The notes under the pieces are model-generated. The model made no database searches and had not been told where the DNA came from. It saw only the letters and a program-made list of their open reading frames with translations. Below are positions 5,036-19,453 of a stretch of DNA of 64,000 nt, piece after piece. A program made the position numbers and the translations under genes. Numbering within the stretch: position 1 is the first letter of the stretch; every line of letters starts with the position of its first letter. The stretch comes from an uncultured bacterium (lineage in GTDB: Bacteria; Muiribacteriota; Ozemobacteria; Ozemobacterales; Ozemobacteraceae), in assembly GCA_937949615.1 (NCBI GenBank), contig CALEDQ010000008.1, positions 243,586 to 307,585 on the forward strand. Reading direction: 5' to 3'.

Positions 5036-6151
5036 GTGAAATTCCGCACCCTGATCGCTCTGGCTGTCTGTTCCTGCACTTCAGGCCTCTGGGCCGAACC
5101 CTCTGCCCTGGTAAACGATCCGCGCGATCTGCGCCTGATCAACCTCAAAGAAGTCTCCAGCTTCCTTGAAGAAGACCTCGATCTCGGAAAAGGCATAACC
5201 GAAGTGATCGGTAAGCAGGTTATCGACCGCAAATTCCGCAAAGCCGGTATTCCCGACCCCGTTAAATCTCAGCTCAGCTACGCCATCGTTGCCCGTGAAA
5301 TGCCTGCCGAGCAGCTGAACATCTGCTTTATTCTCAAAGGCAATGTCGTGCCCGAAAAATTTCTTGAATTTGCCGGCAATCGCTACGATCGCTATTTCGA
5401 AACCCTCAAAAGCCAGAAACTGGTAAAAGACACTCCGGCACCGGCAGACAAAACCATCGCCGGCAAAAACGCCCGCGTTTTCCCATTCGCTTTCAGAAAT
5501 GCCGAAGCTGTTGTGACCTGGTTCCCCGGTCATACGGTCATTTCAACGGTTCCGGCTGGCGATTATTCGCTGATCAGCGAAACCATCAATGTTCTCGAAG
5601 GCAAAACCCCGGCTTCGAAGGCACAGCCAGATAAAATCGGCTTTATTTCAACATTCGTGCCGATCGACCAGGAAAGAAGCGAAATCCGCAACTTCGAAAA
5701 CCGCTACGATGGCTTTGCCGCAAAAACCCGCAAAAAATTCAAAAAGATTTTCAACCGTGATGCCTATCAGAACAGCGAAGCAATGGCAAAGGCCGAGCAG
5801 CAGCTCAAAAACGCCCTCGCCGACATCGCCCGCTTCTCTTACGATATCAACGCCCGCAAAGAGGGCGAAGGCTATGCCTATGAAGCCAGCATGATCTTCC
5901 GCTGCGCCAACCCCGAAAAGGCCACCGAACTCAAGGAAATGCTGCTCACCTGGCTCGCCTACACTTCTTCCAAATCGCTTTCAGAAGAAGATCTGGTTTC
6001 GATGCGCGCCAATCGCGTCGCCGCGACCGGCTCGACCTGCGTTTTCAATATCAGACTCGGCTCAAGCCAGGAAGAACAGTATCAGTTCTCTTCTCTGATA
6101 ATGAGCCTGATGATGCAGGACCGCCGCTTCAATTCTCTCTTCAAGGGCTGA
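5036..6151 (+). CDS. Secreted hypothetical protein with signal peptide
   Basis: GTG start 6 nt after 'GAGGAG'. N-terminus 'MKFRTLIALAVCSCTSGLWA'. No recognisable catalytic motif. Divergent from the B12-binding radical SAM gene. Confidence 0.6.
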   Translation: MKFRTLIALAVCSCTSGLWAEPSALVNDPRDLRLINLKEVSSFLEEDLDLGKGITEVIGKQVIDRKFRKAGIPDPVKSQLSYAIVAREMPAEQLNICFILKGNVVPEKFLEFAGNRYDRYFETLKSQKLVKDTPAPADKTIAGKNARVFPFAFRNAEAVVTWFPGHTVISTVPAGDYSLISETINVLEGKTPASKAQPDKIGFISTFVPIDQERSEIRNFENRYDGFAAKTRKKFKKIFNRDAYQNSEAMAKAEQQLKNALADIARFSYDINARKEGEGYAYEASMIFRCANPEKATELKEMLLTWLAYTSSKSLSEEDLVSMRANRVAATGSTCVFNIRLGSSQEEQYQFSSLIMSLMMQDRRFNSLFKG

Positions 6152-6156
6152 TCGTT

Positions 6157-8409
6157 TCAGCAATCAGAACGCTGCGGTTCAATCTGAGCCGCAGCGTTTT
6201 TCTTTTTGCGGCCGAACATCAGAATCAGCACCGGCAGCACCAGCAGGTCGCCGGCCAGGCCGATGACGACAACCAGAGTGCCGATCAGGCCAAAGTAAGT
6301 GAATGGCTTGAAGGTGCTGAGCATGAAGATGGCGTTGCCCAGCATCAATAGCAGCGATGATGAGCTCACCGGCACCGCCAGATCGCGAATGGCGGCCATG
6401 ACTTTGCGGGCCTGCGTCGGTTGACGGTTTTCCTGAAGAAAGGTCAGCAGATGCAGGGTGTCGTCGACGATCAGCCCGCTCATGACGCAGCCGACCACGG
6501 CAGTCGAAGGGTTGAGCGGCAGACCAAAATAACCCGCCGCCGCATAAGCCAGCAGAATCGGGTAAAAATTGACCAGCAATGCCACAAATGCCAGATACAG
6601 GCTTCTGAAGACGAGATAGAAAACCGCGATAATCATCAGAACCGCAGCCACAAACGACCAGGTGATGTTTTCGAGTATGCTTTTCTGCATCAGCGCGTTC
6701 AAATAGACATCACCGGTAACATCGACACTCAGAGAAGCCGGCAGGGTTGCAGCAGCCGCAGCCAGAATCTGGACGCGCAACGGCACAATACTGAAGTCAT
6801 CGGTCAGGCTTGTGTGAATCCGCAGCAGCGTCGTCGAAAAATCTGGTGCAATCAGCAGATCGGCAATGCCACGCTGCCCGAAAAAGTCGATCACCGCACG
6901 GCCGAGATCAGGGGTCGCCGGCAACACCGCCGCACCGGTGAACTGCTTATTGAACGCCAGCATCAGGTCGACGATCGAAAAAACCCGGTTGATGCCGGGT
7001 ATCGCCTCGACGCGTTTCTGAAATTCGGCAATCCCGGCGAGTCTTTCTGGTTCCATCAGATCGGGCGCCGAAATCATCACCTGAAAATGGCCCGGCCCAC
7101 AGAACCGGTTGCTGATAAAGGCATGCGCCTGCAGCAGCGGGTCAGCGGCCGAAAAATTGTCAGTCAGCGCATTGCGCGTCTCGATTTTTTGCAGCGCCGG
7201 CACGACCAGCAGCAGCGAAACTGCCGCAAACGCCAGCACCTTCCCCGGGTGCCTGAAGACGATATTGCGAACCAGACGCTGTAGCCAGCGCAACCTGCCC
7301 GGGTCTGAACCTCTAAGGCTGAATTTTGGCTGATAAAGCTTAAAGCAGGCGAAAATCAGGCCGAAAGTCACTATATAGGCAAAAAAGCAGGCCAGCGAGG
7401 TATAGAGCGAAAACAGTCTGATACTTGGCGATGGGCTTTGTGACAGCGACAGAAAGCCGATCAGCGTTGTCAGTGTATTGATCAGACAGGGCCCGATCAG
7501 ACGCCGGTAGTTCTGCTGATGCAGCTCAGCGTAATTCTGGTGCGCGTTTTTTCGTTCTCTGACGAAAAAACTGACAATGTAGATAATCTCGTTGAGCGAG
7601 ATGATCAGAGCGAACGGAATTATCGGCGAGGTGAACAGGTTGATTTTATTGCCGTTCATGAAATAGACGGCGAAGGTCAGCGATGTCGGGGCGGCGATTG
7701 CCAGCAGAATCAGCCCCAACACCAGCGGATCGGGGAACAGATACCAGGCGAGAACCGTGCAACAGATCAGGCCGAGCGTCAGAAAGCGCCGATTGTTTTC
7801 GACGATGAACTCGAAAAACCTTTCCTGAATATACGGAAACCCGAACACATGCAGCTTGACCCGCCCGCTCATATCGACCTGCAGCTCTTTGAGGTGGTTG
7901 TAGAGCGTATGCCGGTAATCTGGTGCGCGAATATCTGGCACAATCAATATCTGCAGCGATTTAAGGTCTTCAGAAACCAGATAACCGCGAAACAATCGGT
8001 CGTTCTGCAGCAGCTCAACCAGATTGCGGATACGAAAGTCCTTGAGATAGGCCGCAAACTCGTCGACCCGGCGAAACGGCCTGAGCACATCGAGAATCGA
8101 CAACACCTGCCGCACTTCAGGCCAGCTGTGAATGCGGTCGACAAGCTCCCAGGCGGTTAAAAGGGAATTGCGATCGATGCCGTCAATATCGAAAGCCAGC
8201 AGAATTGCCTGCTCATGCCCGAAATACCGCCGGTATTCGGCGCGGGTCGCAATTGCCTGCGGGTCAGAAATTCCCGCTTCGAAGTCTTCATCGACTTCGA
8301 CATGCGAAAAAGCGCCAAAACTCATGAGAAAGCTGGCAATAATGACCGCAATGACCGCACCCGGGTGCCCGGCGATAATTTTATAAATCAGACTGGTGAT
8401 TTTCTGCAT
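6157..8409 (-). CDS. MMPL/RND-superfamily exporter, 12 transmembrane helices with two large periplasmic loops (HpnN-like lipid-exporter type)
   Basis: 750 aa. Two blocks of hydrophobic helices are separated by soluble domains. Block 1 includes 'LGLICCTVLAWYLF...LILLAIAAPTSLTFAVYF', block 2 'FVAAVLMIIAVFYLVFRSLYLAFVALLVNFYPILLAYAAAGYFGLPLN'. Last gene of the minus-strand operon. ATG confirmed at 8407-8409. Confidence 0.8.
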   Translation of the reverse strand: MQKITSLIYKIIAGHPGAVIAVIIASFLMSFGAFSHVEVDEDFEAGISDPQAIATRAEYRRYFGHEQAILLAFDIDGIDRNSLLTAWELVDRIHSWPEVRQVLSILDVLRPFRRVDEFAAYLKDFRIRNLVELLQNDRLFRGYLVSEDLKSLQILIVPDIRAPDYRHTLYNHLKELQVDMSGRVKLHVFGFPYIQERFFEFIVENNRRFLTLGLICCTVLAWYLFPDPLVLGLILLAIAAPTSLTFAVYFMNGNKINLFTSPIIPFALIISLNEIIYIVSFFVRERKNAHQNYAELHQQNYRRLIGPCLINTLTTLIGFLSLSQSPSPSIRLFSLYTSLACFFAYIVTFGLIFACFKLYQPKFSLRGSDPGRLRWLQRLVRNIVFRHPGKVLAFAAVSLLLVVPALQKIETRNALTDNFSAADPLLQAHAFISNRFCGPGHFQVMISAPDLMEPERLAGIAEFQKRVEAIPGINRVFSIVDLMLAFNKQFTGAAVLPATPDLGRAVIDFFGQRGIADLLIAPDFSTTLLRIHTSLTDDFSIVPLRVQILAAAAATLPASLSVDVTGDVYLNALMQKSILENITWSFVAAVLMIIAVFYLVFRSLYLAFVALLVNFYPILLAYAAAGYFGLPLNPSTAVVGCVMSGLIVDDTLHLLTFLQENRQPTQARKVMAAIRDLAVPVSSSSLLLMLGNAIFMLSTFKPFTYFGLIGTLVVVIGLAGDLLVLPVLILMFGRKKKNAAAQIEPQRSDC
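6168..6207 (+). terminator. Rho-independent terminator for the 5036..6151 gene, embedded in the 3' coding end of the convergent MMPL gene
   Basis: Stem 'aacgctgcgg' / 'ccgcagcgtt' with an 11-nt loop, followed by 'ttttctttttg'. Confidence 0.6.
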
Positions 8410-8478
8410 TAACGCCCATTTTAAAACAGAACCCCGGCAGACTCCAGCGTTTTTCTGCCCGGCAACAAATAGCTGCAG

Positions 8479-10971
8479 TCAGCACTGACCGGCAGCGAGA
8501 GATTTGAGCAGCGTGGCGGCGCCTTTGGCGGTTTCGAGAAGTTCGAGGGCGAGATCCTTTTCAGCAGAATCTGCACCGGTCAGCCCGGCCCAGAGGGCAG
8601 CAGGTTCCTGAATGCCGGTGATACGGCAACCGGCTGTGAACAGCATTTTTCGTGCTTCGACTCCTGGCTTTTCAGCCTGCAGTATTCGCCAGACTTCACT
8701 CAGCGCGGCCAAATCAAGGCAGTTGAGCAGACTCTGCATTATTTCGGCGGCGTGCGGGTCACAGCCATCGGCTTTCAACCAGGCGCTGAGCGCAGCAGAG
8801 TTCAGCGCCACACCGTGTGCACCAGCAACACAGGCCGTAATCTTTGCCGGGCAATCGCATTGATCGTGCATTGCAAGCAATTCGAGAAGGGCAATCGCCG
8901 GCAGCCCCGGCAAAAACTGCAGCAGCTTCAGTAACAGCTCGACAAAAATCCGGTCACGCCTGACGCTTGTCAACGAGCTCACTTCTTGCCTGAGACCACA
9001 GGCACCGGCCAGCTGTTCAACCCGGGTCATCAGATCGGCCTGCAGAGCGGCAAGTGCCACTTCAGCGCGAACCCGGTCTTCTGGAAACCGCCGGCCACAT
9101 TCTTCCAGCCAGCCGGCCAGCTCGATCGAGCGCCACTTTTCGCAGCTTTTCATCGCCGCGGCTCTTACTCTGGCCTCTTTATCGAACAACAGCTGCCTGA
9201 GAAGGTCTGAAAAACACCTGTGCGGCAGCTCGCCCAGAACTGCCGCGGCACTGGCCCGACAACCGGCTTCGTCTGATTTTGCCATGGCCAGAAGATCGGC
9301 AAGAGCCGGGCGCAGACTCTCTTCGTCTTCTGCCAGTCTGATCAAAGCAAGAACCGAATTTGCCCTGACGCGATTGTCTGAATGCGACAGCAGCTGCTGC
9401 AGCCACGGAATTGCCCGCCCGCCCGACAATCGATAAGCAGATTCGACCGCATCGGCAATGACTCTCGGAGCATGCCGGCCGGATAAAAAACCGTTCAAAT
9501 CGGCTTCGAGCGAGTGATGACCGTTGCGCCCGGCAATTCTTATCAGCATCGACAATTCTTCGTCAGAGTTCACTCTTTTCAGCATGCCAGCGATGATACC
9601 GGCAGCGAATTCCTGATTGCGCCGGCTCATTCTGCCAAAAAGATACGGCCAGGTCTTCACCGGCTGCCCCGCAACCCGTGCCATTTCGGCTTCATAATCG
9701 AGAACTTCGAAGCCCTCACCGCCCGCGAATCCGATGTCGCGCTCTCTGCCGGCAAGGTTGGCCTGCAGAGCCTTCTGGTAGTCATTAGCGGCCCGACGCG
9801 CCAGCAGCAGATAAAAGCTGCCGGCCCCCAGCAGCAGCCAATAAAAAACCGCATCATCAGCCAAGCCGGCGACAGTTTTCAGCAGCAGCCCGGTCAGAAT
9901 AACCGTCGATGCGAAAATGATACCGTCAGAAAAAAATCTGAACTGATTTCTCAGGGCCTTCTCATAGAGGTTCAGAAAAAGATTGACGAGATTCTGATCG
10001 AAAGTTCTGATACTGAGCAGCAGCATGAACTGAAAAGCCACCAGCCCCTCGAATCCTGGATAAACAAGCATGGTTGCCGCCCCGGCCATCAGAATCGCCG
10101 GCGTCAGAAACAGCAGAGCCGTCGGCCGGAAGCGCTTCAGAAGCCATGGCAGCAGCAGTGACTGAGAAAACAGAGAAATCAGGCGCAGCGAGCTTTCAAA
10201 GGCCCCCGAAAATGAAGCCAGGTCACGTTCATCGACGAATTTTCGACTCAGAGCCGATGCAAACAGATAAGACGAAGAATAGCGGCTGAATGCAAGAACC
10301 ACCATTGAACCGACAATCAGCAGGCTCAATGGATGCCCGGCGGCCAGGCTCAGCGTTTTTTGCCAGCTTACTGTGTGTGTTTCATTTTTCTCTGGCTCAT
10401 CACCCTCTTTTCGTGGCAGAAGGGCTACACATAATGGCAGAAGCAGAAAAATCACGGCACAGGCATAATGACAGGCCGCGTATGAAAACAGCGAAAATAA
10501 GGCCGGCATAAGATAACCAAGCACGATACCACCCGAAAACATTACCCCGGCAATCACCCCGACCCACTGCCGCATCTCGCGAACGGTCAGCAGACTGTTG
10601 GCCGTATTCCAGAAAATTATGCCAAAATAGACGTCATACAACGAAACTGCCACATATACAGCCATTAACTCGAGTTTTCCGAGAACCGCATACTGGCTTC
10701 CGGCAGCACTGATAAGCAGAGCAAAAATCGGCGCCACGATATAACTGGCTCTGAGGCTGGTCTTTTGCCACCTGCGACTGCCCACCATCACCAGACCTGC
10801 GATAAGCGAAAAAACCGAAAGCCAGATGTAGTATTCGGGCAGTGCCGCACGACCAGCGATTTTAAGAAATGATGAAAAGCTCAGCAGCACAGCGAAGGTC
10901 GCCCCGAGTTTGTAGACAAAACCACAGAGGCTCAACAGCAGAATGCGCTTGTCGACAAAACTGTCAGCCAT
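8479..10971 (-). CDS. Fusion protein: N-terminal multi-helix transporter-like domain (MFS or ATP/ADP-translocase-like) plus C-terminal HEAT / PBS-lyase repeat domain
   Basis: About 440 aa of hydrophobic helices, then a soluble region with repeated 'xRVRAxAxxAL' units ('NRVRANSVLALIRLAEDE', 'EARVRAAAMKSCEK', 'DRVRAEVALAAL'). The likely real start is the ATG of 'MADSFVDK', inside the sequence 'aATGGCTGAcag'. That ATG overlaps the TGA stop of the upstream gene by 8 nt. The track start at 11007 is a non-ATG codon. Confidence 0.7.
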   Translation of the reverse strand: MADSFVDKRILLLSLCGFVYKLGATFAVLLSFSSFLKIAGRAALPEYYIWLSVFSLIAGLVMVGSRRWQKTSLRASYIVAPIFALLISAAGSQYAVLGKLELMAVYVAVSLYDVYFGIIFWNTANSLLTVREMRQWVGVIAGVMFSGGIVLGYLMPALFSLFSYAACHYACAVIFLLLPLCVALLPRKEGDEPEKNETHTVSWQKTLSLAAGHPLSLLIVGSMVVLAFSRYSSSYLFASALSRKFVDERDLASFSGAFESSLRLISLFSQSLLLPWLLKRFRPTALLFLTPAILMAGAATMLVYPGFEGLVAFQFMLLLSIRTFDQNLVNLFLNLYEKALRNQFRFFSDGIIFASTVILTGLLLKTVAGLADDAVFYWLLLGAGSFYLLLARRAANDYQKALQANLAGRERDIGFAGGEGFEVLDYEAEMARVAGQPVKTWPYLFGRMSRRNQEFAAGIIAGMLKRVNSDEELSMLIRIAGRNGHHSLEADLNGFLSGRHAPRVIADAVESAYRLSGGRAIPWLQQLLSHSDNRVRANSVLALIRLAEDEESLRPALADLLAMAKSDEAGCRASAAAVLGELPHRCFSDLLRQLLFDKEARVRAAAMKSCEKWRSIELAGWLEECGRRFPEDRVRAEVALAALQADLMTRVEQLAGACGLRQEVSSLTSVRRDRIFVELLLKLLQFLPGLPAIALLELLAMHDQCDCPAKITACVAGAHGVALNSAALSAWLKADGCDPHAAEIMQSLLNCLDLAALSEVWRILQAEKPGVEARKMLFTAGCRITGIQEPAALWAGLTGADSAEKDLALELLETAKGAATLLKSLAAGQC

Positions 10972-12067
10972 TCCAGAGGTCCGTCCAGGTGCGGTTGAGC
11001 ATGGCATCCCTGCGAATCTTGTCGTTCAACTCATTGAAGGCCTCAAGTGCTTCGCCGGCTTCTCCAGAAGCCTGGTGCCCGATGCGGTCAACTGCCCGCC
11101 CCTGCCGCAACTGTTTGAGACCGGCAATCAGAAGCTGCAGAGGCCTGATAAAGACCGCGGCGGCCCTGAGCCCGAAAAAAACTGCGAGGGCCGCAATTAT
11201 CAGCAGATAAAAAACAACACGGTTGCGCAGATGATCCAATAGACCGGTAACCGATGTTTCAGGCATGCCGACGCAGACTTCAAGGCCAGCTTCCTGAACC
11301 AGATGCAGCGAGAAAAGATAGCCGGCGGTGCGCATCGATTCAGCCAGAAAATGATTTTCGGCATCGATGCAGGTCGGTGGTATTGTTCCGGTCTGCACCA
11401 GTACACGGCCCTGATGATCGAGTAAAGCAATGCAGGCATCGGGAGCCGGTTTCATCGCTTCCATGCTTTCGCCGAGTCGCGAGGTCTGATCGAGAACCAT
11501 GCCGCAGCTGAGAATACCTTGCAGCTGGCCGCCAGCCTGCACCGGCAAAATGAAAGAACTCATCAGTCTTCCGGAATCGGATTTGAAAAAACGCGAAAAA
11601 ACCAGACTGCCCTGATCGCGGGCTTTCAGCAGATCCTGATAAAGATTGGCAGTGGCCGGGTTTTCACCGTATTTCATAAAATTCTCGCCGGCATACTGGC
11701 TGAGATCTCGATTATCGGCATAAGCAACCGCCACCAGCGGCCCCGACGGCGAAAAATAGTAGATATTATTGAACATGCTCGATGAAAACAGAGCAGCCGC
11801 AAGAAATTTCTGAATCGCCTGTGAATCGCCTGAATGAAGAATTTCATTGGCTGCAAGCCTCTGCATCGCCTCTCTGGCATCACGGGCGCGCTGATTCAGA
11901 CCGGCCCCGATCGCCGCAGCCACATTGTCGATGGCTGTCGATGCCTGCGCCAGAATCACCCGGCGGCTCTCATGGTAACTGAGCCAGCCGGAAACCATTA
12001 TTGCCACAACGCTGATAGCGACGAACAGAAAGGCGGTCTGATAATAAAGACTGAATCTGAATTTCAT
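10964..12067 (-). CDS. Membrane sensor with periplasmic Cache-like domain, second transmembrane helix and cytoplasmic HAMP domain; no output domain
   Basis: TM1 'FLFVAISVVAIMVSGWL', a periplasmic domain of about 250 aa, TM2 'VVFYLLIIAALAVFFGL', then HAMP-like 'IRPLQLLIAGLKQLRQGRAVDRIGHQASGEAGEALEAFNELNDKI', ending 'WNG*'. Probable start is the ATG of 'MKFRFSLYY', preceded by 'AGGTGA'. The track start at 12112 is upstream of that. Confidence 0.7.
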   Translation of the reverse strand: MKFRFSLYYQTAFLFVAISVVAIMVSGWLSYHESRRVILAQASTAIDNVAAAIGAGLNQRARDAREAMQRLAANEILHSGDSQAIQKFLAAALFSSSMFNNIYYFSPSGPLVAVAYADNRDLSQYAGENFMKYGENPATANLYQDLLKARDQGSLVFSRFFKSDSGRLMSSFILPVQAGGQLQGILSCGMVLDQTSRLGESMEAMKPAPDACIALLDHQGRVLVQTGTIPPTCIDAENHFLAESMRTAGYLFSLHLVQEAGLEVCVGMPETSVTGLLDHLRNRVVFYLLIIAALAVFFGLRAAAVFIRPLQLLIAGLKQLRQGRAVDRIGHQASGEAGEALEAFNELNDKIRRDAMLNRTWTDLWNG

Positions 12068-12071
12068 CGGA

Positions 12072-13205
12072 TCACCTACTGAAGCGACTGCAGAGCATGC
12101 CTTTGATGCCAAGCTGCCGCTCGATTATCAATGCTTCGAAATCGAAACCGTAACAGCTTTTGCCGTGCCGGCTGCACTGGTCACAGTTCTTGAAATGACT
12201 GACAACCGTTTTGCGAAAATCATCGAGAACCTGGCTTCTGCTCCAGATATCGACGATATCATCCTCGGGCAGTCGCCCCAGGCAGAGTTCTGGGTTCAGA
12301 TAGCTCGCATAATGATGTGGCCAGACCCGCCCGTCGGCTGTGAGACAAAGGGCAGTAAACCCCGCCGGTACCGGAATTTCGACCGGCGCCGGCCGCCTCT
12401 GGCTGCCGATCGCAGAGCAGGCCACCGGGTATGCCGGGTATTGCCGCTGCAGTGCTTTAACCCTGACAGCAAGTTCTTCAAGGGCATTTTCGTCGAGCAG
12501 CAGATGCTGCATGTTTCTCGCCCTGCCGATCAGGCGAATGTGAAAGATATTCATACCGGCGCTGCAGGTGGTTGCCCAGGCGAAAATCTCTTCGAGGCGG
12601 GCAAGATTCTGGCGGTGCGCCAGCAGATTGATACGCACCGGCACCCGGTTGGCGGCGAAAAGCTGCAGAGAGCGATGCACCGAGGCGAAAGCACCCGCCC
12701 CACGCAGGGCATCATGAACATCGGGCGGGCCGTCGACGCTCACGGTCACCTGATCGCAGGCAAGCGCGGCAAGCTTCGCGACAAAAACGTCGGGGTCGTC
12801 ATATACCCCGTTGGTCTGCAGCGAGACCACAAGACCGAGCCCGCGGGCATATTCGAGGATCTGAAGCAGGTCTGAACGAAGCGAAGGTTCGCCACCGGTG
12901 AATCTGACGTTGATAACGCCTGCAGCGGCCAGCTGGCGCAATACCGCAAAAACGGTTTCTGACGGCAGCTCTGAGGGATCAGCAGTTCGACAGCTGGCAA
13001 AACACTGCTGGCAATGAAGATTGCATCGCCTTGTCAGCTCGTAATAAACAGCTACCGGCGACGATATTATATCTCTACGCCCGTTTATAACAGCAGAAAC
13101 TGGTTTTGCCCCAGATGGACAGGCGGCGGTTTCAGAAAAAACCGTAGAAAAATTCTGTGAATCAAATATGGCGCTGCCAAAAAATTCCGGTCTGAAAAAC
13201 TTCAT
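12072..13205 (-). CDS. Radical SAM protein with C-terminal SPASM/twitch auxiliary Fe-S domain
   Basis: Radical SAM triad 'CNLHCQQC'. C-terminal cysteine cluster 'CLGRLPED...CDQCSRHGKSCYG'. ATG at 13203-13205 lies 2 nt after the stop of the upstream B12-binding radical SAM gene. Confidence 0.85.
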   Translation of the reverse strand: MKFFRPEFFGSAIFDSQNFSTVFSETAACPSGAKPVSAVINGRRDIISSPVAVYYELTRRCNLHCQQCFASCRTADPSELPSETVFAVLRQLAAAGVINVRFTGGEPSLRSDLLQILEYARGLGLVVSLQTNGVYDDPDVFVAKLAALACDQVTVSVDGPPDVHDALRGAGAFASVHRSLQLFAANRVPVRINLLAHRQNLARLEEIFAWATTCSAGMNIFHIRLIGRARNMQHLLLDENALEELAVRVKALQRQYPAYPVACSAIGSQRRPAPVEIPVPAGFTALCLTADGRVWPHHYASYLNPELCLGRLPEDDIVDIWSRSQVLDDFRKTVVSHFKNCDQCSRHGKSCYGFDFEALIIERQLGIKGMLCSRFSR

Positions 13206-13207
13206 GT

Positions 13208-14566
13208 TCAGTTTTCTCCGGCAGCAGCGGTTTTCAAGGCCTCCGCACTGGTTTCACTCATATTTTCTACTGCCGAATAGGCCGCTCTGACGATTTTCAC
13301 CATCTGATCATGCTTGAAAAAGACATTCACATCAGATGCTGGCACACTCGAATACCGTGCCAGCTTTGCATCGGCAAGGCGTTCTTCTGACGGAACACTG
13401 ATCGCCTGATGAATCTGCGACTGCCACAGATCGGCGCCGAACTGCTGTGAAAGCTGGGTTCCGGCATAGAGAACCACCGGAAAAAAAGTGCAGTCGCTCA
13501 TGCCAAGGCGCTTCAGTTCGATGGCAAAATTAACGGTCGCTGCCATTTCTTCAGGGGTTTCATCAGGAAACCCGAGCATGAAGAAACCGCGCGAGTAAAT
13601 GTGGCGTTGCCCGAGAAAGCCCACAGTGCTGCGCACCCGGTCAAGGTCGAGAAACTTTTGCAGCGCCTTCTGGCGCTCGCGGCTTGCAGTTTCAACGCCC
13701 ATCGAAACGAAATTACAGCCGGTTCTGGCCAGGTCATCGGCAATTTCAGCGGTAATGTGATCGGCACGCCCGATGCAGCTGTAAGTTACATCGAGCTTTG
13801 CAATACCGGCGAAAAAATCGGCAAGCCAGCGGCGGTCACTGAAGAACGAATCATCGAGAAAACCGATATTGATGCGGCCATAGCGCCCGGCATGAAACGC
13901 AACTTCGCGCAGCACGCGATCGACCGAATAGCGCCTGACTTTGCCCGGCCAGAGTTTTGGCGAGGCACAGTAGGTGCAGCGGCAGGCGCAGCCACGCGAA
14001 GTCGTCATAAATACCGAGCGCGGCACTTTGAGCTGATCCTGCAGAGCAAAGTAATCTGGCATCGAAACGAGCTGATAATCAAGAAATGGCAGAATATCGA
14101 GATTGGCAATTTCATTGCCGTTAATTGTCACTGTTGCTTCTTCGGCCGGGCGATCTGATCTGATCAGGTCTTCAAGTGCCGTTTCGCCTTCGCCGACAAT
14201 CGCAAAATCAACAAGATGCGCATCGATTATCCGGCCCGGCATTGCCGTCAGCAGGGGACCGCCGCCAATTGTTCGAATTTCGGGCACTTCAACCTTGAGA
14301 GCCCGGCACAACTTTGCTGCGGTAGCCTCGGTGCCCTGATAGAAGGGAATCCCAACCCATTTCGGGGCGACAGCCCTTATTTCTGCAAGCGTTTGTGGCA
14401 GGTCGAGCTGCTGCTGTGAGGCGTCGAGAATTCTGGTGCCGATTCCCTTAGAGTTCAGCCATGAAGCAAGATAAATCAGGTTGACCGGTGGCTTCAGATC
14501 GACCATTGCGCGCGTATCCCAGCTCAGGGGGAACGAAACGAGTATGACTTCACTCTGACTGTTCAT
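13208..14566 (-). CDS. Cobalamin (B12)-binding radical SAM protein (class B)
   Basis: B12-binding-like N-terminus ('VILVSFPLSWDT...LIYLASWLNSKG'). Radical SAM triad 'CACRCTYC'. The track start at 14584 is TTG. An ATG ('MNSQSE') at about 14566 sits 6 nt after 'GAAAGG' and is the more likely start. Confidence 0.85.
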   Translation of the reverse strand: MNSQSEVILVSFPLSWDTRAMVDLKPPVNLIYLASWLNSKGIGTRILDASQQQLDLPQTLAEIRAVAPKWVGIPFYQGTEATAAKLCRALKVEVPEIRTIGGGPLLTAMPGRIIDAHLVDFAIVGEGETALEDLIRSDRPAEEATVTINGNEIANLDILPFLDYQLVSMPDYFALQDQLKVPRSVFMTTSRGCACRCTYCASPKLWPGKVRRYSVDRVLREVAFHAGRYGRINIGFLDDSFFSDRRWLADFFAGIAKLDVTYSCIGRADHITAEIADDLARTGCNFVSMGVETASRERQKALQKFLDLDRVRSTVGFLGQRHIYSRGFFMLGFPDETPEEMAATVNFAIELKRLGMSDCTFFPVVLYAGTQLSQQFGADLWQSQIHQAISVPSEERLADAKLARYSSVPASDVNVFFKHDQMVKIVRAAYSAVENMSETSAEALKTAAAGEN

Positions 14567-15581
14567 CAAAAACCTTTCTGACAAAAGACTCAGGCGAAAT
14601 TTCGCGGGCGGTGACCGCCAGCAGGCTGCCGGAACCCTCGATATGCCTCAGACCGGCGACCATGTCGGCACAGCTTAAGCCAATCTGTTCAAGTCCGGCA
14701 AGATTTACCGGAAGTCCAAGACGCACACACATGGCACGAAACTTTTTCAACAGGTCGTATGAGCCGGTTTGCCCGGCAAATGCCCAGACATTCATCAGTG
14801 ACCCGGCGGCAACCAGTTCGCCATGAAATGGCTTTAATGCGTCATTGTAGAGATGGCTTTCCATTATCGCATAATAGAGTTTGTGCTCGCCGCCGGCGCT
14901 CAGCTCGGTATTGCCGCGCTTGATCACCATCAGCGAGCTGGCATGCGAGTAGCGGGCAAGACGGCGCATGGCCATGCGGTTGAAGCCATTAAAGCGGTTC
15001 AATACCCAGTCGATGGCATTGAAATAGAAAGCGGCGAGTTCTTCAATTTCAGAGCGACTGAAACTGCCGCTTTGAAAGCTGTAATCGATGGCAGCACTGA
15101 TGCCGGCAAAAAAGTCACCGAAACCGGCGCGTGCCGCCCGCAGAACCGTAGGGTTAACTGCGGTTTCAAGAAATTCATCGAGAATAAAAACCGTTTCAGG
15201 GGCCCGGGTTTTGCTGGCTCTGAATTTTCCCTCGTATTTGAGCACGCTGCGGTCAACACTGATGCATGAAGTCGACAGAAATGTCGGAATCAGCAAAAGC
15301 GGCCGGTCGGCAACATGAGCGCAGGCCCTTGCCACATCGAGAGCGGCACAGCCCCCCACCCCGACGTATCTGACGGCCTTGCCGCTTACGGCAATTATGG
15401 CCTCGATGTTGCGGGCGCAGTTCGAGTCGATGACACGCAGCAGCGGCAGCTTCTGCAGTCTTTCCTGCTGTGAATCATCGGTGATGAAAAATGTCTGACC
15501 GTCGTCGAGTGCCGCAGTGAGTTCGAGCAGCGACGACGCCGTAAAAACCAGCTCAGGCCTTTTCCATAGCGAATTCTGCAT
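14550..15581 (-). CDS. DHQS/Fe-ADH-superfamily enzyme: sugar-phosphate cyclase, glycerol-1-phosphate-dehydrogenase-like or iron-containing alcohol dehydrogenase
   Basis: Nucleotide-binding motif 'YVGVGGCAALDVARACAH' followed by 'LLLIPTFLSTSCISVDRSV'. Compare the dehydroquinate synthase pattern 'GGGvvgD...vPTTLLSQVDSSVGGK'. I take the ATG at 15581 ('MQNSLWKRPELVFTAS') as the start. The 42-codon track extension to 15707 is Cys/Trp-rich and unconvincing. Confidence 0.65.
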   Translation of the reverse strand: MQNSLWKRPELVFTASSLLELTAALDDGQTFFITDDSQQERLQKLPLLRVIDSNCARNIEAIIAVSGKAVRYVGVGGCAALDVARACAHVADRPLLLIPTFLSTSCISVDRSVLKYEGKFRASKTRAPETVFILDEFLETAVNPTVLRAARAGFGDFFAGISAAIDYSFQSGSFSRSEIEELAAFYFNAIDWVLNRFNGFNRMAMRRLARYSHASSLMVIKRGNTELSAGGEHKLYYAIMESHLYNDALKPFHGELVAAGSLMNVWAFAGQTGSYDLLKKFRAMCVRLGLPVNLAGLEQIGLSCADMVAGLRHIEGSGSLLAVTAREISPESFVRKVFDEQSE

Positions 15582-15733
15582 TGAAAATCCCGACAACCGA
15601 ACTTGATGAGCCGCCACAATTATACCTGTACAACCGCAAAAACCTAAGCCCCATCTGCAGATTTTCAATGGCAATCTTTGCAACAGTTTCTCGAAATTAT
15701 CGAACAACCTGCTTATGCCATAAAAACTCAGTT

Positions 15734-16468
15734 TTATCTGGTCGAATTTGCGGCAAGCACGCCGGCAAGCGCGTCGGCAACGTCGCCGGAGTAAACGCCG
15801 CCGTGGTAATTGATAATCTCGCTGATTTTGAGGCTTTGCATTTTTCGAATCGATGCGAGGGCAGCGTTCATATCGAGCGTGAACTGCGGGTTCGGCAATA
15901 TCATCCGGCCGTCCTCGACAGCAGTGGCATCACCGGCAACAAAGATTCCACGATCTTCGACGTAGAGTGAAATGTGCCCCGGGGTGTGGCCGGGCGTCGC
16001 AATGACTCTGACACTCTCGCTGAGACGCTCGCCGTCATCAACCAGCCGGTCGACCGGGCAGATGTCGATGGTCTTCAGATAAGCGGCAAAACGTTCACCA
16101 AAATCCCGCTCACTGCCAACAAGCGTCTTATTGTGTTCTTCAGCCTGCTGCAGTCGCAGCGAAACCTTTTTACCGGCAATATAATCTGCTTCTGAACGGC
16201 CGGCAACGATTCTGACCGCCGGGTGCATCATTTTCAGAGCCAGCAGAGAACCGACATGATCATGGTCGTGGTGCGAAACGACAATCATGGTCAGGTCTTT
16301 AACCGCCAGGCCATGTCTGGCCAGTTCCCTGGCAATATCCTCGGCCTGCCCCGGGTAACCGGCATCAAAAAGAATCCGCTCGTCATTGTCGATGAACAGA
16401 ACCGGGTTAACTTCTGACTTAAAGGCCCCAAAATCCTTAACAAGACGCAAAATATGATGTATAAACAT
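15734..16468 (-). CDS. MBL-fold metallo-hydrolase
   Basis: 'MIVVSHHDHDHVGS' (HxHxDH zinc motif) and 'ATPGHTPGH'. First gene of the minus-strand operon. ATG confirmed in the text. Confidence 0.85.
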   Translation of the reverse strand: MFIHHILRLVKDFGAFKSEVNPVLFIDNDERILFDAGYPGQAEDIARELARHGLAVKDLTMIVVSHHDHDHVGSLLALKMMHPAVRIVAGRSEADYIAGKKVSLRLQQAEEHNKTLVGSERDFGERFAAYLKTIDICPVDRLVDDGERLSESVRVIATPGHTPGHISLYVEDRGIFVAGDATAVEDGRMILPNPQFTLDMNAALASIRKMQSLKISEIINYHGGVYSGDVADALAGVLAANSTR

Positions 16469-16608
16469 GCCAATTTCCTTTCTTTGTCATGATTTTCTCA
16501 CAAACTGCTGTTACGACAAAGATAAAGATGATAAACAATTTGCCTGGTGGCATTTAACAGAATCAGGGTAAAATACCACGATAAAATCTTCACCCCGATA
16601 AGCTGAGT

Positions 16609-17178
16609 ATGACGACCATGAAAAAAATACCCGTGCCGGTTCTTCTGATTGCCCTGCTGCCGGTGATCACCGCCCTCTGGCTCAGATACAGCGGCAGAAA
16701 CTGGCTTGCCCCTGATGGCAGTCTGCGTCTCTGGTATGGGCTGGCAAACGGCTCCGGCACCTCACAGCACCTTCTCGACCCATACAGTTTCACGCATTTT
16801 CTGCACGGGTTTATTTTCTGCTGGCTGATAATGCTGGTCGGAAAAAGCCTGCCGTATCTCTGGCAGCTGACCCTGACTATCGCTGCCGAATCTGCCTGGG
16901 AAATAACCGAAAACTCAGAAACAATAATCAACCGTTACCGCGAAGCCACCGTCGCACTCGGCTATTTCGGCGACAGTATCATCAACTCGATGTCAGATAT
17001 TCTCTTCTGTGCACTCGGCTTTGTTGTCGCCGCCAGGCTCGGTTTTAAAAAAAGCCTGGCGGTCTTCGTCATCATCGAACTGCTGCTTCTGCTCTGGATC
17101 AGAGACAATCTGACGCTGAACATCATAATGCTCTTAAGACCGGTCGAAGCCATCAAAGCCTGGCAGGGCGCCATCTGA
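16609..17178 (+). CDS. Small integral membrane protein of unknown function (about 4 helices)
   Basis: 'MKKIPVPVLLIALLPVITALWL' plus three further hydrophobic segments. Divergent from the radical SAM operon. Confidence 0.55.
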   Translation: MTTMKKIPVPVLLIALLPVITALWLRYSGRNWLAPDGSLRLWYGLANGSGTSQHLLDPYSFTHFLHGFIFCWLIMLVGKSLPYLWQLTLTIAAESAWEITENSETIINRYREATVALGYFGDSIINSMSDILFCALGFVVAARLGFKKSLAVFVIIELLLLLWIRDNLTLNIIMLLRPVEAIKAWQGAI

Positions 17179-17242
17179 AACAGAGCCCCTGCAGAAAGCC
17201 GATCGCGCAGGCCCGGCAGGGGCGCTTCCGTTAACGCCGCGA

Positions 17243-18418
17243 TTGCTGTATATTTGTTGTGAAAAACCACTCAGGAGATTTCATATCAACAGCTCAATCA
17301 AAACCGGTCTGCTGCTTTTTTCGTTTGTTGCCTCAACCCTGCTGACCCCGGCAGTCTGCACCGCTCAGCGCGCCAGCAATCCAGACTTTCCGCAATATGA
17401 AAGTTCTGGTTATTCAGATTATCCTGAAATGACCGAGCCTGAACCGGGCGCCGATGAATCGACCAGCGTCTACGAATACCTCGATCGTGAAGGCGAATCT
17501 GGCAGTGAAGACTCAGAAAATTATTATGACGAGCCCAATTATGAATCTGCCGGCACCGGCGAATACGACGAAACCACAGATGTCAGCGAAGCTGCTGAGT
17601 CCGCTCCGCCACCGGCACGCCAGCTGCTCAAGCCCGGCGCCCCGATCGATATCGCCGAAAAAACCATTCGCGTCGGGCGTATCCCCTACCTCAGCGTTAA
17701 ACAGCTGATGGCCCAGGCGGTACCGCTGCTGCGCAATCTGCAGAAACGCACCGGCGCCAAAGAAGTCAGGCTGGTTTCGAGCGGCTCATATTCAGATATC
17801 ATCAGCGCCCTGGCCCGCGGAAAAATCGATTTCGCCTGGGTGGGCCCGACCGCCTATCTCAAACACCGCGACAAAGAGAACCTGATGGCGGTTGCCAAAG
17901 CAAAATTCGGCGACGAAACCGCCTACCGCGGCGTCTTTATCGCGCCGGCCAAAGGCAAAGTGCAGGGCCTCGAAGATCTCAGCGGAAACATCGTCGGCTT
18001 CGTCGACCCCGAATCGGCAAGCGGCTACATCTACCCCAACTACCTTCTGAAAACTCTGAAAATCAGACTGAACAAAAAGACCCGCGTCGCCTTTCTCAAA
18101 AACCACGACAATGTTCTGCTGGCGGTTTTAAAAGGCAAAATCGACGCCGGGGCCTGTCTCGAAAAGACCATTACCGCCTCGAAAATCAAAGATCTCGATA
18201 AAAGAATCATCGTTCTCGCAAAGACCGAAGAAATACCCTCTGACGTCATCGTCTGCCGTCAGGACTGCGCAGCGAATCTGCGCGAAAAATTTCAGGAAGC
18301 CCTCACCAGCATCAAACCAGGCGAACTGCCCGGCAGTCCGCTGACCTTTCTTGCCGCCAGCGACGATGAATTTGCACCTGTCGAAGCGGTGATGCGCTAT
18401 CTCAAGCTGCTACCCTGA
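17243..18418 (+). CDS. Phosphonate/phosphite-type ABC transporter substrate-binding protein (PhnD-like) with an acidic Tyr/Glu/Asp-rich N-terminal extension; no cognate ATPase or permease adjacent
   Basis: Signal-like segment 'LLLFSFVASTLLTPAVCTA'. Acidic tract 'YESSGYSDYPEMTEPEPGADESTSVYEYLDREGESGSEDSENYYDEPNYESAGTGEYDETTD'. PhnD-like core 'GRIPYLSVKQLM...DFAWVGPTAYLKH...YRGVFIA...GNIVGFVDPESASGYIYP'. The track start is TTG. Confidence 0.7.
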   Translation: MLYICCEKPLRRFHINSSIKTGLLLFSFVASTLLTPAVCTAQRASNPDFPQYESSGYSDYPEMTEPEPGADESTSVYEYLDREGESGSEDSENYYDEPNYESAGTGEYDETTDVSEAAESAPPPARQLLKPGAPIDIAEKTIRVGRIPYLSVKQLMAQAVPLLRNLQKRTGAKEVRLVSSGSYSDIISALARGKIDFAWVGPTAYLKHRDKENLMAVAKAKFGDETAYRGVFIAPAKGKVQGLEDLSGNIVGFVDPESASGYIYPNYLLKTLKIRLNKKTRVAFLKNHDNVLLAVLKGKIDAGACLEKTITASKIKDLDKRIIVLAKTEEIPSDVIVCRQDCAANLREKFQEALTSIKPGELPGSPLTFLAASDDEFAPVEAVMRYLKLLP

Positions 18419-18447
18419 ACAGAGGCGGCAACAGCTGGATTTTCTGC

Positions 18448-18486
18448 AAACAGCCCTGACAGTTCAGGGCTGTTTTGCTTTTTCGG
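18448..18486. terminator. Bidirectional rho-independent terminator between convergent genes
   Basis: Stem 'aaacagccctga' / 'tcagggctgttt' with loop 'cagt', then 'tgttttgcttttt'. The stop codon of the 18464..19444 gene lies in the right arm. Confidence 0.6.
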
Positions 18487-19444: not shown

Positions 19445-19453
19445 TTTATCAAC

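Follow-up and report, generated by a model that had tools for sequence, protein, structure and literature searches.

A rare five-gene cassette that combines two radical SAM enzymes, a dehydrogenase, and a sensor-transporter pair in uncultured bacteria

We identified five genes that recur as a group across several phyla of uncultured bacteria and correspond to no pathway described to date. They lie on the minus strand of the window analyzed here (the whole stretch of 64,000 nucleotides) and encode a dehydrogenase resembling glycerol (GlyDH) and glycerol-1-phosphate (G1PDH) dehydrogenases, a B12-binding radical SAM enzyme, a second radical SAM enzyme, a dCache-HAMP sensor, and an MFS-HEAT membrane protein. 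No description of this cassette was found in family libraries or in the literature, and all five proteins score below every curated equivalog threshold; their chemical roles are therefore extrapolated from superfamily membership. The cassette probably makes or converts a small molecule that both membrane proteins move and sense. We give a probability of about 0.4 to the more specific reading of a radical SAM conversion of a small polar metabolite with a dedicated sensor-transporter pair.

All seven minus-strand genes of a preliminary description were recovered (Table 1), and genes called independently on metagenome contigs of identical sequence had the same product lengths. Pfam thresholds were passed for Lactamase_B, Radical_SAM with B12-binding, Radical_SAM with SPASM, HEAT_2, and MMPL; the domain content held overall, except for the first half of the label "DHQS/Fe-ADH-like", as that protein is GlyDH/G1PDH-like. 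The tight spacing claimed for the junctions holds at five of the six. The stop of the dehydrogenase gene indeed falls inside the start of the B12-binding radical SAM gene (17-nt overlap), and the TGA-AC-ATG junction described at 13205/13208 (13210-13203) leaves 2 nt before the second radical SAM gene. A gap of 4 nt precedes the sensor gene, which overlaps the MFS-HEAT gene by the 8 nt noted earlier (ATGGCTGA at 10971-10964), and the MMPL gene follows after 69 nt. The sixth junction, between the MBL-fold hydrolase and dehydrogenase genes, measures 26 nt only with a TTG start at 15707. Alignment and gene calls place the dehydrogenase start of all orthologs at the ATG at 15581, giving 152 nt, and this junction is therefore loose.

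Table 1 Features of the cassette and its surroundings in the window
Feature	Position	Strand	Remarks
MMPL/HAE3-like transporter (RND superfamily), 750 aa	6157..8409	-	Lineage-specific accessory gene; Pfam MMPL, TIGR00921 HAE3
MFS-HEAT, 830 aa (core gene 5)	8479..10971	-	Pfam HEAT_2, MFS_1
dCache-HAMP, 367 aa (core gene 4)	10964..12067	-	dCache_1 match, HAMP-region matches
Second radical SAM enzyme, 377 aa (core gene 3)	12072..13205	-	Pfam Radical_SAM + SPASM
B12-binding radical SAM enzyme, 452 aa (core gene 2)	13208..14566	-	Pfam B12-binding + Radical_SAM
GlyDH/G1PDH-like Fe-ADH-fold dehydrogenase, NAD(P)-dependent, metal, 343 aa (core gene 1)	14550..15581	-	
MBL-fold hydrolase, 244 aa	15734..16468	-	Accessory gene; Pfam Lactamase_B
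Intergenic region upstream of core, 152 nt	15582..15733	-	
GC-rich hairpin, 16 bp	6166..6200	.	At convergent gene ends; terminator-like scan

The intergenic region is, by inference, the likely candidate site for the core operon's own promoter; no Rfam riboswitch and no consensus sigma-70 site was called in it. Locus L014, which lacks the MBL gene, keeps homology to the window from position 15686 downstream. At the other end, the hairpin is a likely candidate terminator closing the transcription unit, and a 371-aa gene of unknown kind on the plus strand (5036-6151) converges on the MMPL gene there.

The conserved unit comprises five genes, not the seven originally proposed. This set was found in at least six lineages (that of the window, L007/8, L009/10, L025, L029/30, and L109), arranged in five distinct orders and orientations, with amino-acid identities of 26% to 70%, and the co-occurrence is the same with the dehydrogenase or the B12 enzyme as search seed. 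Profile searches placed the proteins in no described pathway and matched no curated family or system; the neighborhood, called unrecognized at the outset, is co-conserved in its five-gene core, while the MBL and MMPL genes drop out. The MBL gene is absent from L014, which is otherwise ~90% identical to the window in DNA up to a break in homology at 15686, as well as from L007, L009, L025, L030, and L109. The MMPL gene (139 against a cutoff of 352 for TIGR00921) is present only in Riflebacteria/Ozemobacteraceae loci (L012-L014, L028, and L031) and is missing from the five core-carrying lineages other than that of the window. Both are lineage-specific additions, neither being conserved with the core. 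In a decaying lineage (L013, L028, and L031), a 782-nt deletion takes out the junction of the two radical SAM genes, and the dehydrogenase of L013 is broken into two ORFs that lie in different frames. Identity of MFS-HEAT drops to 59% in this lineage; MMPL (95%) and the flanking genes stay 95-97% identical. This pattern fits core genes that depend on each other and an independent MMPL.

In each of the six lineages, the called sensor gene shares exactly 8 nt with the called MFS-HEAT gene. An Eremiobacterota variant differs in that its sensor gene overlaps a B12-radical SAM gene from the same subfamily. The cassette is rare and prone to loss, and sample names place its hosts in anaerobic digester and sludge metagenomes. 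PADLOC assembled no anti-phage defense system; the only similarity it reported, to pVip and PDC-M51A, was of a generic radical SAM kind. Histidine-kinase or RR-HD-GYP genes adjoin the cassette in three lineages, and no signaling genes lie near it in two (L007 and L030). This genome is very rich in such genes, at least six of which fall within the window, and their adjacency is therefore weak evidence.

The B12-binding enzyme carries its CxxxCxxC triad at C193/C197/C200, and the cysteine triads of both radical SAM enzymes are invariant in ortholog alignments. Around 85 proteins match it at E < 1e-80, followed by a gap down to 1e-35; judged by sequence, it is a member of a distinct subfamily. 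It reaches no NCBIfam equivalog, its best matches being TIGR04072 (96.7 against a cutoff of 360) and HpnJ (86.7 against 577.6), and it also matches the RiPP enzymes ApyD and TIGR03975. Its nearest solved structure is AprD4 (4e-12).

The second radical SAM enzyme has a conserved WPHHY motif, an N-terminal extension of about 50 aa, and a reduced SPASM domain, in which C341, C344, C351, and C372 are the only invariant C-terminal cysteines. By sequence, these four would be enough for one auxiliary cluster, a single set as in Twitch enzymes. No RRE/PqqD-like domain was detected in it with Pfam or NCBIfam. StsB, MftC (114 against 265), and PqqE (112 against 381) are its best NCBIfam matches, each below cutoff; in the PDB it matches PqqE (7e-21), SkfB (6e-20), and, weakly and over the radical SAM core only, GDGT-MAS (3e-9). 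BtrN is not among its PDB matches at E <= 0.001. It should be noted that PqqE, SkfB, MftC, and StsB modify peptides, not small molecules, which counts against the small-molecule reading.

The dehydrogenase passes the Fe-ADH_2 cutoff of Pfam marginally (29.4 against 28) and bears the signature motifs GVGGCAALDVARA and STSCISVD. Both its sequence and its predicted fold place it nearest to the glycerol and glycerol-1-phosphate dehydrogenases. Across orthologs, neither the putative metal ligands (D156, H233, and H253) nor the NAD-motif residues vary; given these residues and the cysteine triads, the dehydrogenase and both radical SAM enzymes are likely active. A word-indexed search of 5.8 billion proteins returned only 10 matches. 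More distant relatives come from DPANN archaea, a Methanosarcinales archaeon, Patescibacteria, and others, where their neighbors are NadE-like PP-loop, DUF1152, NUDIX, and TrmB genes and not lipid genes.

The sensor consists of a transmembrane segment (11-29), a dCache domain, a second transmembrane segment (289-307), and a HAMP domain, and ends about 10 residues later in a conserved W-x3-W tail. The dCache_1 match of the window protein is below threshold (30.2 against 45) and is supported by the orthologs; the HAMP domain was detected via histidine-kinase models and in orthologs. Across seven aligned lineages (the six core carriers and L027), the Cache-domain motif and the tail persist at 26% overall identity, and no output or transmitter domain (HisKA/HATPase, MA, or GGDEF) follows HAMP in any of them, in agreement with the initial observation. 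Any output must be delivered in trans.

MFS-HEAT combines an NTT-like MFS membrane domain (about 1-405) with a cytoplasmic HEAT-repeat domain (about 425-830). HEAT_2 is above its Pfam cutoff (43.5 against 27.7), while MFS_1 is below it in the window protein (30.9 against 33.4) and is supported by orthologs. Pfam TLC does not match the window protein even at E <= 1. An exhaustive search found 748 relatives, the distant ones matching TLC and some also cNMP-binding domains. The TLC-positive relatives align over both domains (phmmer E 1e-16 to 1e-17), with TLC above cutoff and HEAT_2 also matched, and those scanned share 21-27% identity with the window protein. The AF2 model (pLDDT 82) has an all-helical repeat domain over 425-830, and its best Foldseek matches in the PDB are the ATP/ADP translocators AtNTT1 and Chlamydia NTT1 (E 1e-6, TM 0.66-0.68); the matches also include the lipid transporter SPNS2. 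Together, sequence and model suggest that MFS-HEAT is a divergent relative of the NTT-HEAT family. In the available text of Major et al. 2017 (PMC5381601), this family combines a TLC/NTT nucleotide-transporter domain with HEAT repeats and sometimes cNMP-binding domains, and has no characterized member; the comparison therefore transfers no function.

Several described pathways were considered and rejected. Assignment of core gene 1 as a sugar-phosphate cyclase (DHQS/DOIS/EEVS) was not supported, as it is closest to GlyDH/G1PDH by sequence and predicted fold. Archaeal ether and tetraether lipid synthesis (G1PDH, GGGPS, DGGGPS, and Tes/GDGT-MAS) does not fit the score of 39 against 413 for the G1PDH profile NF002022, and no prenyltransferase was found in the module or in orthologous loci. 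Nor does the TIGR04072 score fit a ladderane-type B12-radical SAM enzyme. Membership in the PQQ, mycofactocin, or sactipeptide systems was rejected on the missed equivalog cutoffs, the missing RRE, the four SPASM cysteines, and the lack of a conserved precursor among ORFs of 18-110 aa from six lineages. The cluster had been described as non-hopanoid, and this stands: HpnJ falls far short, as does HpnN (30.8 against 751.85), and none of the 27 window ORFs scanned contains a squalene-hopene cyclase domain.

Beyond the domain identities, the residues expected for activity, the co-conservation, and the gene-level coupling, we infer a substrate class, a direction of transport, and a target of the sensor. 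The three cytoplasmic enzymes would act on one small polar hydroxylated metabolite, such as a polyol, a sugar, or perhaps a nucleotide-linked compound. The dehydrogenase would interconvert a secondary alcohol and a ketone, using NAD(P) and a metal; the B12-domain enzyme would catalyze either methylation by a radical mechanism or a diol dehydration or rearrangement like that of AprD4; and the second radical SAM enzyme, with its single auxiliary cluster, would perform an oxidation or bond-forming step. The sensor and MFS-HEAT may be produced in a fixed ratio via the 8-nt gene overlap, the NTT-like protein moving the substrate or product across the membrane and the dCache-HAMP protein binding the compound outside the cell. 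The conserved C-terminal tail of the sensor could then act on MFS-HEAT or on the B12 enzyme and, in some lineages, perhaps on the neighboring histidine-kinase/HD-GYP genes.

Modification and export of a membrane lipid is an unlikely alternative to this metabolite conversion. The G1PDH-like enzyme would supply or modify a glycerol(-phosphate) head group, the radical SAM enzymes would methylate, cross-link, or cyclize lipid chains as do HpnJ/HpnP/HpnR, ladderane-type B12-radical SAM enzymes, or GDGT-MAS/Tes, and MMPL/HAE3 would export the product. Such a role is consistent with the lipid-biosynthesis families TIGR04072 and HpnJ at the top of the B12 enzyme's NCBIfam matches, G1PDH among the closest relatives and folds of the dehydrogenase, the weak GDGT-MAS match, the HAE3/MMPL transporter downstream in the window, and the two membrane proteins among the five core proteins. 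However, every lipid-family match is far under its cutoff, and MMPL is missing from most core lineages and kept where the radical SAM genes are destroyed. No prenyl-, acyl-, or glycosyltransferase, squalene-hopene cyclase, or acyl carrier protein was found in the module or the scanned window ORFs; the distant dehydrogenase relatives adjoin other kinds of genes; and the transporter fold is nearest to nucleotide translocators, despite the SPNS2 match. The G1PDH homology raised in the preliminary description was right, while the lipid inference drawn from it is weak.

We also give little credence to a peptide- or protein-derived product, in which the radical SAM enzymes would modify a ribosomal peptide or a cassette protein, perhaps yielding a redox cofactor for the Fe-ADH-fold dehydrogenase by analogy with PQQ and mycofactocin. 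The maturases matched by the second radical SAM enzyme and the RiPP enzymes matched by the B12 enzyme point in this direction, and mycofactocin systems are associated with dehydrogenases, Fe-ADH-family members included. Against it, ORFs of 18-110 aa from six lineages, compared all-against-all, yielded only shadows inside large genes and no small ORF conserved between lineages outside them, although a fast-evolving precursor could escape this search. This agrees with the earlier statement that no precursor-peptide ORF is present and, with no peptidase or peptide ABC exporter found either, that the cluster is not a canonical RiPP cluster. No RRE/PqqD-like domain is present, the N-terminal extension spans about 50 aa, four of seven SPASM cysteines are conserved, and the MftC and PqqE scores fall short.

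Similarly doubtful is a role in taking up an external nutrient and converting it anaerobically. The dCache domain would recognize this nutrient, MFS-HEAT would import it, and the enzymes would dehydrate and reduce it, in a manner resembling the glycerol dehydratase/1,3-propanediol oxidoreductase pathway or the AprD4/AprD3 pair. The pairing of sensor and importer-like proteins with a dehydrogenase, the AprD4-type diol dehydratase as nearest solved relative of the B12 enzyme, and the anaerobic habitats argue for it. Radical SAM enzymes, however, are costly for bulk catabolism, as they use SAM stoichiometrically; the core has no conserved neighbor encoding a kinase, an aldolase, or another downstream catabolic step; and the cassette is rare and easily lost. 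For the main reading of a metabolite conversion, the same SAM-consuming chemistry does not separate biosynthesis from signaling.

Finally, the 2-deoxystreptamine-like aminocyclitol pathway first suggested (DHQS-like cyclase, BtrN-type dehydrogenase, GenK-type B12 C-methyltransferase, MBL, and MMPL) is very improbable and largely refuted by the GlyDH/G1PDH-like dehydrogenase and the lack of a BtrN match at E <= 0.001 for the second radical SAM enzyme, although that enzyme conserves one auxiliary-cluster cysteine set as Twitch enzymes do; no aminotransferase or glycosyltransferase was found in the seven genes, their flanks, or orthologous loci.

Among known systems, the apramycin radical SAM diol dehydratase AprD4 and its NAD(P)H reductase AprD3 likewise pair a B12-like-domain radical SAM enzyme with a nicotinamide-dependent oxidoreductase. 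The AprD4 family of NCBIfam matches core gene 2 at 1.3e-16, but with a score of 60.5 against a cutoff of 500; the cassette has no aminoglycoside context, and AprD3 belongs to a different fold family from the cassette dehydrogenase. The SPASM peptide maturases PqqE, MftC, SkfB, and StsB match core gene 3 best, in its radical SAM core as well as its C-terminal domain, but this protein keeps four C-terminal cysteines instead of seven, in a cassette with no RRE partner and no precursor peptide found. HpnJ, a B12-radical SAM enzyme and the first or second sub-cutoff NCBIfam match of the cassette B12 enzymes, and the RND exporter HpnN belong to the same superfamilies as the B12 enzyme and MMPL, but the RND gene here is not conserved with the core. 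MFS-HEAT resembles NTT-HEAT proteins in its N-terminal 12-helix MFS/NTT-like membrane domain followed by PBS-lyase-type HEAT repeats; it differs in being locked to dCache-HAMP and two radical SAM genes, a setting that the available text of PMC5381601 does not mention. The sensor shares its topology with the dCache-HAMP modules of histidine kinases, chemoreceptors, and diguanylate cyclases, of which a full dCache-HAMP-GAF-GGDEF protein is encoded in the window (21863-24058), but stops after HAMP with its W-x3-W tail. Compared with GldA and EgsA/AraM of the Fe-ADH superfamily, whose equivalog or subfamily profiles it matches far below cutoff, at 39 bits (NF002022, cutoff 413) and 35 bits (cutoff 336), core gene 1 forms its own rare clade, marked by the motifs STSCISVD and CAALDVARA.

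Five genes in the window recur together in six lineages, and this co-conservation is solid. They encode a dehydrogenase of the Fe-ADH fold, a B12-binding radical SAM enzyme (B12-rSAM), a second radical SAM enzyme with a reduced SPASM domain, a dCache-HAMP sensor and an MFS-HEAT protein. The preliminary description had proposed an operon of seven genes, adding an MBL-fold hydrolase gene upstream and an RND-superfamily MMPL (HAE3-like) transporter gene downstream; judged by locus comparison, these two are accessory to the core. ORF calls confirmed all seven genes on the minus strand within 6157-16468. Gene calls on identical metagenome contigs gave products of 244 (MBL), 343 (dehydrogenase), 452 (B12-rSAM), 377 (second radical SAM), 367 (dCache-HAMP), 830 (MFS-HEAT) and 750 aa (MMPL), and orthologue alignments agree with these starts. 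Five of the six junctions agree with that description; the MBL/dehydrogenase junction is tight only from an upstream TTG and is not counted as such, since no orthologue backs that start. The domain assignments were upheld in outline by Pfam and NCBIfam profile searches, in which none of the seven proteins reached an NCBIfam equivalog cut-off. A PADLOC scan for defence systems gave generic radical SAM matches only.

GC content across the operon was unremarkable and the composition of the window was without anomaly. No tRNA was found in the window, and no Rfam family (riboswitch or leader RNA) was detected at the gathering threshold window-wide or at E <= 1 over 15500-16700. Promoter and terminator scans gave counts near chance, so no argument on operon boundaries was rested on them; the exception was a 16-bp hairpin at the common 3' ends of the MMPL gene and a convergent gene for a 371-aa protein.

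Coordinates and arrangements of features in the window and in loci of other genomes and metagenomes (L numbers)
Feature	Position or locus	Strand	Details
MBL to dehydrogenase junction		-	152-nt gap, orthologue-backed starts
Dehydrogenase/B12-rSAM junction		-	17-nt overlap
B12-rSAM to second radical SAM junction		-	2-nt gap, TGA-AC-ATG
Second radical SAM to dCache-HAMP junction		-	4-nt gap
dCache-HAMP/MFS-HEAT junction		-	8-nt overlap, ATGGCTGA
MFS-HEAT to MMPL junction		-	69-nt gap
Hairpin, 16 bp	6166-6200
371-aa protein	5036-6151	+
Second B12-binding radical SAM	3496-4848	-	unrelated to core one; best matches HpnJ, BchE
RR-HD-GYP	2300-3418	-	after second B12-binding radical SAM
PAS hybrid histidine kinase	upstream of 2300	-	beyond RR-HD-GYP
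1760-aa hybrid kinase	40034-45316
Core, all five co-directional	window, L007
Core, histidine kinase and dehydrogenase convergent with other four	L009
Core, dehydrogenase convergent at 3' end	L025
Core, B12-rSAM, second radical SAM and dehydrogenase convergent with dCache-HAMP and MFS-HEAT	L030, L109
Deletion-bearing loci	L013:10945-12730, L028:59-1844, L031:2-1181		sister Ozemobacteraceae lineage
MBL/Apyc1-like and cNMP-binding fusion, 717 aa	L025:4854-7007	-
Variant	L027 (Eremiobacterota)		dCache-HAMP overlapping B12-rSAM, then second B12-type radical SAM
Variant	L110		B12-type radical SAM, dehydrogenase, MFS-HEAT, B12-rSAM
Variant	L026		MFS, B12-rSAM, radical SAM, B12-rSAM
Variant	L032		B12-rSAM, radical SAM, luciferase-like enzyme, OYE, ABC exporter
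Distant dehydrogenase loci	L015-L024, e.g. L015:9158-12813, L019:9980-12383, L023:5680-8984

A word-indexed search of 5.8 billion proteins seeded with the dehydrogenase returned only 10 relatives. Two of them (55% and 37% identity) adjoin genes of the other four core types, the MFS/HEAT protein being ~830 aa long; MBL and MMPL genes are absent from both loci. An independent search seeded with the B12-rSAM gave ~85 proteins at E < 1e-80 followed by a gap to 1e-35, scores by which this subfamily is sharply bounded. All five genes were found for members at least 46% identical on sufficiently long contigs, namely L025 (a 5.18-Mb contig), L029/L030 and L109, while L108 (Wallbacteria) carries three of the five on a 14-kb contig from which the sensor/MFS-HEAT pair is missing. 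The distribution of the cassette is narrow. Among the six lineages the core genes occur in five arrangements at 26-70% identity, and the dCache-HAMP and MFS-HEAT gene calls share the 8-nt overlap in all six. That five genes are kept together despite rearrangement at this divergence is strong evidence, from comparative genomics, for a functional linkage. A B12-rSAM-seeded metagenome scan retrieved mostly out-group B12-rSAMs (25-33% identity) without any partner gene, and thus helped to delimit the subfamily while adding few new cassettes. At five loci (L038, L044, L060, L061 and L095) such out-group paralogues are clustered, with about four to nine per locus, and two of these loci also contain SPASM-type radical SAM genes.

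The closest genome loci are L014, annotated as Candidatus Riflebacteria, with a dehydrogenase 94% identical to that of the window, and L013 (Candidatus Ozemobacteraceae); identical genes are present on contigs of several metagenome assemblies. From 15686 to 6001 the window and L014 share ~90% DNA identity, but L014 lacks the MBL gene, and there a DUF2585 gene abuts the dehydrogenase gene. The MBL gene is likewise missing from the other core-bearing lineages, and the MMPL gene and the convergent gene for the 371-aa secreted protein are confined to Riflebacteria/Ozemobacteraceae loci. The latter protein has a signal-peptide-like N-terminus, is 95-97% conserved alongside MMPL and has no match in Pfam, NCBIfam or PADLOC.

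Three independent assemblies (L013, L028 and L031) have in common a 782-nt deletion, corresponding to window 12622-13403, whose span takes in the 3' end of the B12-rSAM gene and, in the second radical SAM gene, the 5' end with its CxxxCxxC motif; the remnants are in different frames. Gene calls that are truncated or chimeric (P0005, P0008) were found repeatedly in many assemblies, and a frameshift in L013 also splits the dehydrogenase between two frames. In this lineage the MFS-HEAT protein is 59% identical to that of the window, with window 8457-10503 lacking a nucleotide-level match, and MMPL, the 371-aa protein and the second, unrelated B12-binding radical SAM enzyme are still 95-97% identical. 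Decay of the radical SAM genes and divergence of MFS-HEAT beside a conserved MMPL and flanks fit core genes that depend on one another and an MMPL that works independently. The divergence of MFS-HEAT may instead stem from allelic replacement of that segment.

Signalling genes lie nearby in three lineages. In L009 the dehydrogenase gene shares an overlap with a histidine kinase gene; RR-HD-GYP, RR-HisKA and hybrid kinase genes precede the sensor/MFS-HEAT pair on the same strand in L109. Downstream of MMPL in the window lie the second B12-binding radical SAM, RR-HD-GYP and hybrid kinase genes, a set kept beside the cassette in the Riflebacteria lineage and similar in its RR-HD-GYP/kinase part to that adjoining the L109 sensor. 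This adjacency is suggestive only, as signalling genes abound in the window (at least six proteins). Away from the cassette the window also encodes several very large hybrid kinases. Upstream of the cassette, 16609-24058 encodes a divergent DUF2585 membrane protein, two phosphonate-binding/NMT1-type periplasmic binding proteins, an ankyrin-repeat protein and a dCache-HAMP-GAF-GGDEF diguanylate cyclase.

The core sensor has the layout TM-dCache-TM-HAMP and ends ~10 residues past HAMP in every aligned lineage, with a conserved W-x3-W tail at its C-terminus. Its Cache domain contains a strongly conserved motif block, against an overall identity of ~26%. For its partner, an exhaustive search with HMMER yielded 748 relatives (18 below 1e-30); farther relatives aligned across both domains match Pfam TLC (the ATP/ADP transporter family) and HEAT_2, and some also cNMP_binding. 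The AF2 model (pLDDT 82) best matched the plant and chlamydial NTT1 translocators, then generic MFS transporters. The window protein gave no match to Pfam TLC even at E <= 1, so its link to nucleotide transporters comes from its relatives and predicted fold, which make it a probable, divergent relative of the NTT-HEAT fusion proteins, a family described in the survey of Major et al. 2017 (PMC5381601) as monophyletic, widespread and uncharacterised. A 717-aa fusion of MBL/Apyc1-like and cNMP-binding domains, unrelated to the window MBL, is encoded 3 kb upstream of the L025 cassette; this fusion and the cNMP-binding domains of distant NTT-HEAT relatives may together point to a link with cyclic nucleotides.

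From domain identities, co-conservation, gene coupling and motifs that are invariant, as activity would require, we propose as the best-supported model (probability about 40%) that the three enzymes would convert a small polar hydroxylated metabolite, which the translationally coupled dCache-HAMP/MFS-HEAT pair would transport and sense, with the conserved tail of the sensor passing on its output in trans. Here we infer the substrate class, the direction of transport and the target of the sensor. A bolder and rather unlikely reading is that the output-less sensor and the NTT-like protein form a ligand-gated membrane complex directly supplying or controlling the radical SAM pair, so that the system would both make and perceive a new diffusible polyol- or nucleotide-type signal tailored by radical SAM chemistry. 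If true, the NTT-HEAT family would gain its first functional context, and a radical SAM enzyme or transporter would for the first time be the output of a HAMP sensor. A rival reading, the uptake of a nutrient followed by its conversion, we consider quite improbable.

The core B12-rSAM carries the canonical cluster motif, and its best matches, all sub-threshold, are lipid-type B12-rSAMs, HpnJ, P-methyltransferases, ApyD and AprD4. Lipid modification would agree with several of these, although we give it as little weight as nutrient uptake; tests for membership in hopanoid, archaeal-lipid and ladderane systems failed, as did those for PQQ, mycofactocin and RiPP systems. The second radical SAM enzyme is nearest to PqqE and SkfB in PDB and to StsB, MftC and PqqE in NCBIfam, relatives that would suit a peptide- or protein-derived product, an equally doubtful proposal. 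No RRE was found in this enzyme, and the absence of a precursor-peptide ORF held in a comparison of 18-110-aa ORFs from the six lineages, where only frame shadows of large genes were conserved. The enzyme has a conserved WPHHY motif, and only four of its C-terminal cysteines are invariant across the six lineages, enough for one auxiliary cluster, where a full SPASM domain has two. Other B12-rSAMs of this core subfamily (35-45% identity) sit in four related but different gene sets, in which the recurring theme is a B12 enzyme together with a further radical SAM enzyme and a membrane partner.

When compared with solved structures, the dehydrogenase family profile matched glycerol dehydrogenases (1.6e-12 and weaker), G1PDH (1.5e-8) and DHQS (only 0.23). 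In the orthologue alignment neither the glycine-rich NAD motif nor any of the Asp/His/His metal positions (D156, H233, H253) varies, so this is probably an active polyol-type dehydrogenase. The 2-deoxystreptamine-like logic initially suggested, for which the cassette failed the membership tests, is very improbable given this DHQS score. At 31-41% identity the clade extends to a Methanosarcinales archaeon, several DPANN archaea, Patescibacteria, Elusimicrobiota, a Ferruginibacter and a Deltaproteobacteria MAG, at loci without radical SAM partners. A NadE-like PP-loop enzyme (once fused to NUDIX) and DUF1152 adjoin the distant dehydrogenase in five to six of 10 loci, and a TrmB regulator in four of 10; the NadE-like/DUF1152 context is a second uncharacterised neighbourhood, and a literature search found no paper mentioning DUF1152.

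If the five genes cooperate as proposed, they would constitute a so far undescribed pathway of radical SAM enzymes in candidate phyla without a cultured model (Riflebacteria/Ozemobacteraceae, Wallbacteria and, as a variant, Eremiobacterota). The cassette would give a testable biochemical context to the NTT-HEAT family, found in cyanobacteria, Chlamydiae and oomycetes with no member characterised, and a context to a new GlyDH/G1PDH-like dehydrogenase clade reaching DPANN archaea and Patescibacteria. With three enzymes and two membrane proteins, it would also be a compact system for asking how an output-less HAMP sensor relays its signal. Our search of the accessible literature found no description of the cassette, the NTT-HEAT survey being the sole relevant paper. 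It is a radical-SAM tailoring cluster built from known superfamilies; what is unusual is the obligate pairing of its enzymes with a HAMP sensor that lacks an output domain and with an NTT-HEAT-like protein.
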